The position numbers are program-made. DNA of 54,896 nt from Enterobacteria phage YYZ-2008. The first letter of the stretch is position 1. The number at the start of each line of letters is the position of its first letter. Shown here piece after piece: positions 27,001 through 30,000 of the stretch. The DNA lies in sequence record NC_011356; one strand, 5' to 3'.

Positions 27001-30000
27001 AAAAATTTTCTGAACCTTTCTGGTCAAGAGCGATGTTAATTTGTTCAATCATCTGGTTTGGAAATCGGATGTTGCGGGTTGTTGTTCTGCGGGGCCGGTT
27101 TTTCGATGACATTTTCTTTCCTCTGGTGACAAGCTATATGGCGAGGATTTTACATGGCTGTGCTTCGTACGTTACCGGGCAGAATCAAAACTCTGAACAC
27201 CCGGCGGATAAATGTCCTGAGGGGGGAACAGCGTCGTGTCAGTGGCAGTGCCCGGGTTTCCCTCAAACGTCGTATCTGGCGGAGGGATGCCGGACACTGT
27301 TGTCTCTGTAGACGCGTGGTTGACCTTTGTGACAGTGAACTCGATCACCGCATTGCACTTCAGTTCGGTGGTGGTAATGAGGAGACGAACCTCTGGACCC
27401 TCTGTACTGAATGCCATCGCCAGAAGTCAGCGAGTGAAGCGGCGGGTGGTATGCCTGATCCGACGTTGCCTGAGCTTCCTGATGGCACGCTCAGGGCCGA
27501 CGGAATCACTGGCCTGTGACCAGACCCGGGGGGGATCATCCGGCGAAAAAAAACGATCGCCCTGGACACCGCGCCCCCTCTCACGCAGAGAAAAAATTCC
27601 CGTTTCAGGGCAGTTAACATGTTAACTGGCTGTCCGGGCATTTTTGCGGTTTTTATCTTTATTATTCAGTTTGTTGTGCGGAAAAAATGTTAACTGGATT
27701 TTTCAGCAAATGTTAACCAGGCAGCAGTTAACATTTGCGGCATGAGACGCCGGGAAAAATGGGCTGAACCATACCCGGCTGAGTGCGTTATGGACCCGGG
27801 AGGAGGCTGTGCTGACAACGCAAAAACGAAAATTTGCGCTGGCGCTCATGTCCGGGAAAAACAAAACAGCGTCAGCCATTGCCGCCGGTTATTCGGCGAA
27901 GACCGCCAGGGTTAAAGGCTCGCAGCTGGCAAAAGATCCGGAGGTGCTCGCGTTTATAGCCCGTAAACAGTGCGAAACGGTGGAGGTGGATGAGGTTCCT
28001 GTTTACCGGCAGAAAAAATCAGAGCAGGAGGATAAACCCCGTCGCCGTGAGGTGGCTGCAATACCACAGCCGGACGAAAACAATCCGGAGATGCCTCCGC
28101 CCGCGGTGATATCTCATGGTATTGAATATATGGAGGATGGTCTTCCCGATCCGGTGAAAGCTATGGGGCAGATCCTGGTGGAAAACCTGATAATTGACCC
28201 GAAACTAGCACTGGATGCGGCCTGGCGACTGGCGCAGTTCACACACCATAAAAAAGGCGATGCCGGTAAAAAATCGGCAAAAGGTGATGCCGCGAAAAAA
28301 GCGGCTAACCGTTTTGCGGTGCCACCGCCACCCCGACTGGTGGTGAATAACGATAATGAGGGCAACGGATGATACCTGTATGGAGCACTGCCTGCCCGGA
28401 CTGGGCAGAGCGCCTGAAAAAGGGGCTGTCGATTATTCCGGCTCCGATTTATCCGGACCAGGCTGCACATGCACTGGCGATTTTTAAACAACTGCGGATT
28501 GTGGATGCACCGGGTAGCCCGACGTTCGGGGAGTCCTGTGCACCGTGGGTGTTTGACCTGGTGGCGGCCCTGTTTGGCTCCTACGATGCGCAGACCGGTG
28601 TTCGCCATATCAAGGAAGTTTTTATCCTTATCCCCAAGAAAAACTCGAAGTCCACGCTGGCCGCAGGGATCATGATGACTGCACTGTTACTGAACTGGCG
28701 GCAGGCGGCGGGCTACACGATTCTGGCCCCGACAGTGGAGGTGGCAGCCCACGCCTTCAACCCTGCCAGGGATATGGTACGACGGGACGATGATCTGGAT
28801 GACCTCTGTCAGGTGCAGACACATATCCGGACCATCACCCACCGGGTGACAGACACCACCCTGAAGGTGGTGGCAGCCGATCCGAATACGGTGTCCGGTA
28901 TCAAGTCCGTGGGTACGCTGATTGATGAGCTGTGGCTGTTTGGCAAGCAGTACAAGGCGGAGGACATGTTACGTGAAGCCATCGGTGGCCTTGCCTCCCG
29001 CCCGGAAGGGTTTGTGGTGTATACGACCACCCAGTCGAATGAACCTCCCGCCGGGGTGTTCAGACAGAAACTGCAGTACGCCCGGGATGTGCGCGACGGC
29101 AAAATTCATGATCCGCACTTTCTGCCGGTGATCTTTGAACACCCTCCTGAAATGGTGGAAAGCGGGGCTCACCTGCTGATGGAAAACCTCGCCATGGTCA
29201 ATCCGAATCTCGGCTATTCAGTGGATGAGGCCTTTCTGTACCGGGAGTATCGAAAAGCACGGGAAGCCGGTGAAGAGACATTCCGGGGCTTCATGTCAAA
29301 ACACGCCAATGTGGAAATTGGTCTTGCCCTGCGCTCTGACCGCTGGGCGGGGGCGGATTTCTGGGAAGAGCAGGGCCGTTGTATCAGCCTGGACGATATC
29401 CTGCTGCGTGCTGATGTGGTGACAGTGGGGATTGACGGCGGAGGGCTGGATGATCTGCTGGGGATGTATGTGATTGGGCGTGACAGGGAAACCCGCGAAT
29501 GGCTGGGCTGGGGCCATGCCTGGGCGCATGAAACCGCGGTGGTCCGACGGAAGAGCGAGGCGTCCCGGTTTCAGGATCTTGTTGCCTGTGGAGATATGAC
29601 CATTGTCCGGCGTGTCGGGGATGACACGGCGGAAGTGGCGGAATATGTGCGTCGCATTCATGAGGCTGAGTTACTGGACCATATCGGTATTGACCCGTCA
29701 GGGGTGGGGCAGATTCTGGATTCACTGGCGGAAGCCGGGATCCCCGACGGAATTGTGGTGGGGATAAGCCAGGGCTGGAAACTGGGCGGGGCCATTAAAA
29801 CCACCGAGCGCAAACTGGCTGAAGGGGTGCTGGTGCATGGTGACCAGCCCCTGATGGCCTGGTGTGTCGGCAATGCCCGGGTGGAGCCTAAAGGTAACGC
29901 CATTCTTATCACCAAACAGGCCAGTGGACGGGGAAAAATTGACCCGCTGATGGCGCTGTTCAATGCGGTCTCCCTGATGTCCCTTAACCCGGAACCGAAA

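Follow-up and report, generated by a model that had tools for sequence, protein, structure and literature searches.

A clustered GTTAAC repeat array beside a predicted cohesive end between the HNH endonuclease and terminase genes of Enterobacteria phage YYZ-2008

The sequence of Enterobacteria phage YYZ-2008 (NC_011356), here called the window, was analyzed over its whole length of 54,896 bp. Its interval at 27520 to 27808 carries an array of repeats centered on the hexamer GTTAAC and lies between an HNH endonuclease gene (27154 to 27519, plus strand; 121 amino acids; PF01844, E = 5e-6, above the cutoff) and terS, which encodes the small terminase subunit (27798 to 28372, plus strand, including the ribosome-binding site GGGAGGAGG; GTG start at 27809; PF03592). 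The HNH gene is of the packaging-associated kind, and homologous records annotate it as an HNH endonuclease or DNase. On the other side, terS is followed by terL, the gene for the large terminase with its ATPase and nuclease (28369 to 30030, plus strand; PF03354/PF20441), and then by a protease-capsid fusion gene. By Pfam matches and gene order, the HNH gene stands directly upstream of terS and terL with a noncoding spacer between, which is the arrangement of HNH-dependent cohesive-end (cos) phages such as HK97 (PMC11331095). An initial annotation had placed the array downstream of the HNH gene and upstream of terS, behind a G/C-rich tract, and had proposed the spacer as a cos region. The placement is borne out by the open reading frames and Pfam matches, and the tract is present (CCCGGGGGGG at 27525 to 27534 and CGCCCTGGACACCGCGCCCCCTCTC at 27558 to 27582).

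The repeat array

The hexamer GTTAAC occurs 19 times in the window. Five copies, at 27613, 27621, 27689, 27712, and 27727, fall within 120 bp (27613 to 27732), and the other 14 are spread over the remaining 54.8 kb. Finding 5 of 19 copies inside 125 bp has a probability of ~1e-5 under uniform placement (a Poisson estimate gave ~1e-7), and the cluster is not due to chance. The longer 11-mer ATGTTAACTGG matches exactly at 27619 and 27687 and, with one mismatch on the minus strand, at 27610 to 27620 and 27724 to 27734; when up to one mismatch was allowed, the window contained six matches against 0.75 expected, four of them in the array. The fifth copy, ATGTTAACCAG (27710 to 27720), differs from the 11-mer at two positions and has AAATGTTAAC in common with the copy at 27685. 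These hexamer and 11-mer counts agree with the five GTTAAC-cored copies, in both orientations over ~124 bp, that had been described initially.

The five copies share the 14-mer consensus mAAATGTTAACTGs and are designated S1 (27610 to 27623, minus strand), S2 (27616 to 27629, plus), S3 (27684 to 27697, plus; AAAATGTTAACTGG), S4 (27707 to 27720, plus), and S5 (27724 to 27737, minus). S1 and S2 form a proximal pair whose overlap is a perfect 18-bp palindrome, CAGTTAACATGTTAACTG (27611 to 27628), that reaches 20 bp in many variants. S3 is a distal site, and S4 and S5 form an inverted repeat, GCAAATGTTAAC-N9-GTTAACATTTGC (27706 to 27738), with 12-bp arms and a 9-nt gap. Between the proximal and distal sites lies a 54-bp spacer rich in T-tracts (27630 to 27683), which is 63% A+T versus 49% for the window and has a peak of AA/TT periodicity at 10.5 bp (P ~0.01 versus shuffles); it is a candidate intrinsic bend. 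The spacer is also the most variable part of the array among the Escherichia coli variants. No match to the IHF consensus WATCAANNNNTTR with at most one mismatch was found in 27520 to 27808. Elsewhere in the window, CAGGCAGTTAACATG at 4352 to 4368, within a minus-strand open reading frame of 315 amino acids (3584 to 4531), closely resembles the S1/S5 sites with their flank; this likeness is probably a chance match.

A predicted cohesive end and a conserved core

The cohesive end of this phage group has already been published for one member: Zhang et al. (2021) reported, using PhageTerm, that the Stx1 siphophage Lys8385Vzw is a cos phage with 3' cohesive ends CGCCCCCCCT (PMC7946995). That paper gives the 10-nt end from PhageTerm only and describes neither the repeat array nor conservation across the family. 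The Lys8385Vzw record (MT225100) has the same core, array, and HNH/terS/terL context as the window. It ends in ...GGACACCGCCCCCCCT (in longer form, ...CGATCGCTCCGGACACCGCCCCCCCT) and starts with CTCACGCAGAGAAAAAATTCCCGTTTCAGGGCAGTTAACATGTTAACTGG, which is followed by the rest of the array and terS. Since its spacer is nearly identical to and collinear with positions 27555 to 27629 and its record junction matches 27579|27580, the predicted 10-nt 3' cohesive end in the window is CGCGCCCCCT (27570 to 27579, plus strand), and the left virion end would start at 27580. Judging from this homology, the YYZ-2008 prophage is probably cut at the same bases as Lys8385Vzw.

The Lys8385Vzw termini therefore put the cut inside the G/C-rich tract, 31 bp to the left of the first repeat, and the array lies 31 to 158 bp inside the left chromosome end, which is the side packaged first. 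Relative to the cut, S1/S2 span +31 to +49 with their hexamers at +33 and +41, S3 to S5 span +105 to +158, and terS starts at +230. The mapped termini and record ends of Lys8385Vzw thus support the initial proposal that the spacer between the HNH gene and terS is a cos region, with the refinement that the cut site and the repeats are separate modules.

The cut falls within a conserved core, GATCGCCCTGGACACCGCGCCCCCT|CTCACGCAGAGAAAAAATTCCCG... (27555 to 27609), which has few variable columns and can be aligned by blastn across the types of relatives described below. Right of the cut, the core includes an A-tract, GAAAAAAT (27590 to 27597; +11 to +18), that is kept in all classes of relatives, as A6 in most and as an AGAAAAT-type tract in type C and three other genera. 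To the left, at what would be the right end of the packaged chromosome, is a CCC-G7-ATCATCC tract (27525 to 27541; about -55 to -39), whose poly-G run is present in all relatives at lengths of G5 to G10. Among otherwise near-identical copies, the length of this run (27528 to 27534 in the window, with counterparts in L001, L002, L008, L009, and L178) differs in a manner typical of slippage. A role for the poly-G/ATCATCC tract in termination, in a cosQ-like function, or in nuclease positioning is speculation.

In PPompW-type prophages (L178; LC567828.1, 1146 to 2604), an ISEc20 element of the IS110 family sits inside the poly-G tract to the left of the core, corresponding to ~27530 in the window. 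These prophages have no lysis cassette and no HNH gene; gene Q and tRNAs are followed directly by the insertion sequence and then by cos and terS, so that they retain cos and the terminase genes without the HNH partner. The cos of SfI/SfV (TGCCCGCCCC) was considered as a counterpart of the core and rejected, as it belongs to a different family.

The 1.3-kb region from the HNH gene to terS is 99.9% identical to E. coli O157:H7 prophages. Of 5,426 complete E. coli genomes, 1,283 contain it, in up to eight copies each. Many long-tailed Stx1, Stx2a, and Stx2c phages also have this cos module, and the region is 92 to 96% identical to Stx1a, Stx2a, and Stx2c phages such as 1717, 2851, BP-4795, WGPS6, and phi330 (genus Pankowvirus). 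Identity over the array itself reaches 95% or more in 1,239 of 1,280 E. coli records, compared with mostly 90 to 95% for the 1.3-kb context. Among 31 distinct E. coli-type sequences, variable columns were counted at 6 of 56 positions in the core, 6 of 62 in the 14-mer sites, and 1 of 30 in the hexamer cores, compared with 39 of 137 at the other noncoding positions of 27610 to 27808 (Fisher's test against these, p = 0.003 for the 14-mer sites and p = 0.002 for the hexamer cores). For terS, the counts were 37 of 188, 27 of 187, and 81 of 187 at codon positions 1, 2, and 3, respectively. The only change within a hexamer core is GTTAAC to GTAAAC, the form used by the type B relatives described below. 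In the divergent variant L097 (strain 1604D011), whose array is 82.7% identical, all five AATGTTAAC cores are kept, and the substitutions fall in the spacers and 3' flanks, including the 3' flank of S3. This pattern of variation indicates that the repeat sites are under purifying selection.

Counterparts in related phages and genera

At the DNA level, Salmonella phage FSL SP-016 matches the window over only ~100 bp, which is the spacer between the HNH gene and terS. When viral contigs were scanned for the core sequence GATCGCCCYGGACACCGC, three types were found: type A (the E. coli type), in which the array has five copies; type B (the SP-016 type), in which the spacer is short; and type C, a third type without GTTAAC that has AAAAGTTACAC repeats instead. 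All three have the poly-G run, the core ...GGACACCGCnCCCCnT|CTCA..., and the A-tract (GAAAAAAT in A and B, AGAAAAT in C). The core is the only stretch that blastn aligns across the three types, the flanking genes being too diverged; between types A and C, only ~70 to 80 bp of it can be aligned. No virion-derived record of type B or type C starting in the core was found in the phage collection. The core is kept in ~20 genera of the Enterobacterales; a TerS alignment run against species-representative genomes brought in ~20 more loci that have it, from Atlantibacter, Kluyvera, Enterobacter, Phytobacter, Kosakonia, Serratia, Citrobacter, Pantoea, Erwinia, Buttiauxella, and Proteus. In Salmonella, Enterobacter, Citrobacter, Erwinia, Serratia, and Proteus, the core is accompanied by a proximal GT(T/A)AAC palindrome at the same offset, and the distal repeats lie in the linker-coding part of terS.

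Type B lacks a segment of ~190 bp that is present in the window. Its terS start codon is the ATG of ATGTTAAC, which coincides with S2 in position and forms part of a near-palindrome, GT(A/T)AAC-(A/G)T-GTTAAC, whose hexamers are at +33 and +41, the same offsets as in S1/S2. This near-palindrome recurs at these offsets in ~20 genera, again overlapping the start of terS. A further GT(A/T/C)AAC is present at -34, and the terS linker contains an inverted pair, AATGTTTAY-ACCCCAGCN-GTAAACA, at about +246 and +261. With its arms 9 nt apart, this pair resembles S4-N9-S5 of the window (AATGTTAAC-CAGGCAGCA-GTTAACA) in both geometry and sequence. The hexamer offsets in these relatives are fixed at -34, +33, +41, and +261. 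Across 25 loci, the combined density of GTTAAC, GTAAAC, and GTTTAC is 8.0 per kb within the 465 bp nearest to cos, compared with 0.62 per kb elsewhere; because the loci are related, this figure is descriptive and not a test on independent samples.

The linker pair was compared among 27 distinct type B terS sequences, of which 24 keep AAT GTT TAY ACC CCA GCN GTA AAC, 23 of them with GTA AAC and 1 with GTT AAC. The Val-Asn codons show no further synonymous variation in these sequences, in which adjacent third positions vary freely, and this freezing points to a constraint on the DNA itself.

Type C and Proteus carry direct repeats in the terS linker. In type C (L008; IMG/VR UViG 2690316316_000010), two GTTAC copies at +32 and +44 are followed by six GTTAC/GTAAC copies at +232 to +298 in the linker, mostly 12 bp apart, which translate there as KKVT repeats. 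In Proteus mirabilis ATCC 29906 (L113, about 1675 to 1840), GTTAAC at +35 is followed by ten GTTAAC-like hexamers (GTTAAC/GTTAAT) from +241 to +397; all of their spacings are multiples of 12 bp, and they read as KVNx repeats. Given that the 12-bp hexamer repeats translate as tetrapeptide repeats, the coding sequence appears to contain a cis-acting DNA array. The repeat module of most relatives thus lies inside terS and not, as initially pictured, in a spacer, and the distal cluster has apparently changed place between the coding part of terS and the spacer preceding it.

The comparison with type B raises another reading of the array, namely, that it is a nonfunctional relic: either the 5' end of an ancestral terS was duplicated or displaced and left behind as spacer, or a small mobile insertion landed there. 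The missing segment in relatives, the position of their terS ATG at S2, and the resemblance of S4-N9-S5 to their terS-internal element would all fit such an origin, as would the 10-bp arms ATGTTAACTG and CAGTTAACAT that flank a 116-bp unit. Nevertheless, the sites are more conserved than the surrounding noncoding DNA, at a level equal to that of second codon positions, and the array was never found outside the context of the HNH gene and terS (3002 places versus 3034 for the 1.3-kb context). We consider a nonfunctional relic improbable, and a relic origin would in any case be compatible with a present function. A mobile element resembling a miniature inverted-repeat transposable element was rejected: inverted arms exist, but with 3002 array places against 3034 contexts, there is no excess of the array beyond its context.

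The ancestral terS ATG is also the start of a 24-codon open reading frame in the window (ATG at 27619 to TAA at 27693) that could encode a small hydrophobic peptide, MLTGCPGIFAVFIFIIQFVVRKKC. However, no Shine-Dalgarno sequence lies upstream, a 1-nt deletion in L097 cuts the frame to 14 residues, the variant L073 has an indel in an A-run, and the frame is absent in relatives. We rejected this reading, whose probability we judge to be negligible.

The inverted repeats could instead act as hairpins in RNA of the late transcript or in single-stranded DNA, controlling terS translation or mRNA stability. The minimum-free-energy and centroid structures both pair S4 with S5 in a 12-bp stem, the arms stay complementary where one type has GTTAAC/GTTAAC and another GTTTAC/GTAAAC, and the array lies directly upstream of the terS ribosome-binding site. 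Only S4/S5 folds robustly, however, and the stability predicted for the region as a whole is ordinary (z = -1.09). No other copy is near enough to S3 to pair with it in a hairpin. In L097, the three outermost base pairs of the S4/S5 stem are lost with no compensating change, although the AATGTTAAC cores remain intact, and the direct 12-bp-period repeats of Proteus and type C are unable to form hairpins. There was also no match in Rfam at E ≤1 within 27300 to 28000, and no intrinsic terminator was found. A hairpin function is accordingly a poor candidate, about as improbable as the relic. A sigma-70 promoter was considered as well and rejected; the one weak promoter-like match, on the minus strand, is composed of the repeats themselves.

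Packaging model and comparison with known systems

TerS residues 2 to 57 match Terminase_2 (PF03592; 35.9 bits versus a curated cutoff of 26.1), which is the sole Pfam match of the protein. A six-member TerS profile matches the DNA-binding domains of SPP1/SF6 G1P (4zc3, 2cmp, and 3zqp; E of 1e-3 to 6e-3), and these matches identify the predicted N terminus as a helix-turn-helix of the SPP1/SF6 type. An AF2 single-sequence model of low confidence (mean pLDDT of 52) has four N-terminal helices (pLDDT of 62 to 77), an unstructured stretch at 58 to 113, and two C-terminal helices; it lends weak support to a helix-turn-helix domain joined by a flexible linker to an oligomerization core. The protein is a mosaic whose N-terminal helix-turn-helix is nearest to that of the Salmonella SP-016 type (L002) and whose C-terminal half (GLPDPVKAMG...DPKLALDAAWRLAQFTHH) matches that of type C (L008). 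Upstream of the HNH gene, an open reading frame of 189 amino acids (25332 to 25901) between the lysozyme gene (24526 to 25059) and an Rz-like gene (26055 to 26522) appears to be an extra gene inserted in the lysis cassette.

Taken together, the interval at 27520 to 27808 is probably the cos packaging site of an HNH-dependent lambdoid siphophage, comprising a cutting core and a recognition array bound by TerS. We infer that TerS binds the GTTAAC repeats, which would fit the position of the array, its conservation, and the family-wide comparison. In this model, TerL and the adjacent HNH protein would nick the core (~27555 to 27609) at 27569/27570 and 27579/27580, generating the 10-nt 3' overhang. 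A cosB-like recognition array on the first-packaged side would consist of the proximal AATGTTAAC pair S1/S2, the 54-bp spacer with its phased T-tracts, and the distal sites S3 to S5. The helix-turn-helix domains of oligomeric TerS would bind the hexamers of both clusters, and an intrinsic bend in the spacer would let both touch one TerS ring. TerS docked in this way would position TerL and the HNH protein over the cut ~30 bp to the left, and packaging would run rightward, taking in terS, terL, and the head genes. Contacts of successive ring subunits with wrapped DNA, a geometry that is likewise conjectural, would be in keeping with the 12-bp period of the arrays inside coding sequence.

Several points weigh against this model. 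The literature searched contained no TerS binding, footprint, or packaging assay on these repeats for any member. PhageTerm mapping of the termini covers a single relative, Lys8385Vzw, the cut in this prophage being placed by homology, and the two overhangs differ at 1 of 10 bases (CGCG... against CGCC...). The site spacings in the window (8, 68, 23, and 15 bp) are no clean multiple of 12 or 10.5, and the sequences compared are related and thus nonindependent samples. Moreover, the three types differ very little in their helix-turn-helix sequences, so very few independent events underlie the correspondence of motif type with protein type. TerS could in fact contact the conserved A-tract at +11 to +18; HK97 gp1, which belongs to another TerS family, threads one 15-bp site into its channel, whereas the window has five or more hexamers.

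These last points lead to an alternative in which the region is cos but GTTAAC is bound by another factor, such as the HNH protein, TerL, a host nucleoid protein, or a phage regulator, with TerS reading only the core and A-tract. HK97 TerS works in this way, binding one 15-bp A-tract site located 15 to 29 bp to the right of the cut (PMC11331095). The conservation of the A-tract in the window would fit such a contact, as would the small differences in TerS helix-turn-helix between lineages with different repeats. On the other hand, the repeats track terS across genera, overlapping its start codon and recurring within its linker, and the interval has no IHF consensus. TerS also belongs to the helix-turn-helix family Terminase_2, members of which bind repeated boxes, as SPP1 G1P does. 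On balance, we regard recognition of the hexamers by another factor as unlikely, and TerS is the favored ligand.

We tentatively suggest, with less confidence than for the cos assignment itself, that GTTAAC-type hexamers could form a family-wide recognition code for the Terminase_2 TerS proteins of HNH-dependent cos phages in the Enterobacterales. The code would combine a proximal site, fixed at ~33 bp from the cut, with a distal cluster that can move, and its 12-bp period would reflect successive helix-turn-helix domains of a TerS ring on wrapped DNA. For most lineages, the distal cluster would lie in the terS linker, forcing the 12-bp repeats (KVNx/KKVT) and freezing synonymous positions; the E. 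coli O157 lineage would have moved it from the gene to the spacer. If true, the relatives would provide a natural variant series for testing wrap versus thread models of small-terminase recognition.

The searchable literature yielded no description of the array or its counterparts in relatives and no paper linking GTTAAC to a small terminase and cos. Apart from the Lys8385Vzw paper, searches with the core and overhang strings gave nothing but unrelated primer matches. If co-resident prophages carry the same cut site and array, they could be packaged by each other's terminase, and complementation between prophages has been proposed for the lambda-type cos prophages of O157 Sakai (PMC2669165). 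Such sharing of terminase bears on the mobilization of defective, toxin-carrying prophages. A defined cos with a candidate TerS site is in addition a handle for cos-plasmid and transduction tools, and its variation between relatives offers a way to examine how small terminases with a helix-turn-helix recognize DNA.

In lambda, cosB has the order R3-I1-R2-R1 and is bound by gpNu1 and IHF. The array in the window likewise stands between the predicted nicking site and terS, toward the end packaged first, and consists of several short repeats, facing both ways and separated by a candidate bend, that presumably anchor the small terminase. In contrast to lambda, TerS here belongs to Terminase_2 and not to the Nu1 family, phased T-tracts take the place of an IHF site between the repeats, and the system has a 10-nt 3' overhang, an HNH partner, and a palindromic hexamer motif. 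Because the TerS family differs and there is no IHF site, the array is not homologous to lambda cosB; by analogy, it is cosB-like in its predicted function.

The N-terminal helix-turn-helix, identified by the Pfam and PDB profile matches above, is homologous to that of SPP1/SF6 G1P. Further parallels with the SPP1/SF6 and P1 systems are short boxes that recur with bent DNA between them and recognition sites that overlap terS. SPP1 G1P binds repeated boxes in bent DNA, and rings of the SF6 type carry their helix-turn-helix domains on the outside. In P1, pac consists of two hexamer clusters separated by a bend. SPP1/SF6 and P1 are, however, headful (pac) systems with imprecise cuts, whereas the window has a cos system with defined ends and no methylation site; headful packaging is at odds with the defined cohesive ends of its close relative Lys8385Vzw.

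In HK97, the HNH protein gp74 stimulates cutting to leave a 10-nt 3' overhang (PMC11331095). As in HK97, the window has an HNH gene to the left of cos and an A-tract near the cut, and homology to Lys8385Vzw places defined termini with a short 3' cohesive end, also of 10 nt, in its spacer (PMC7946995). Joint cutting by HNH and TerL would be expected here. The HK97 TerS site lies tens of base pairs to the right of the cut, and the candidate TerS sites in the window have the same placement.

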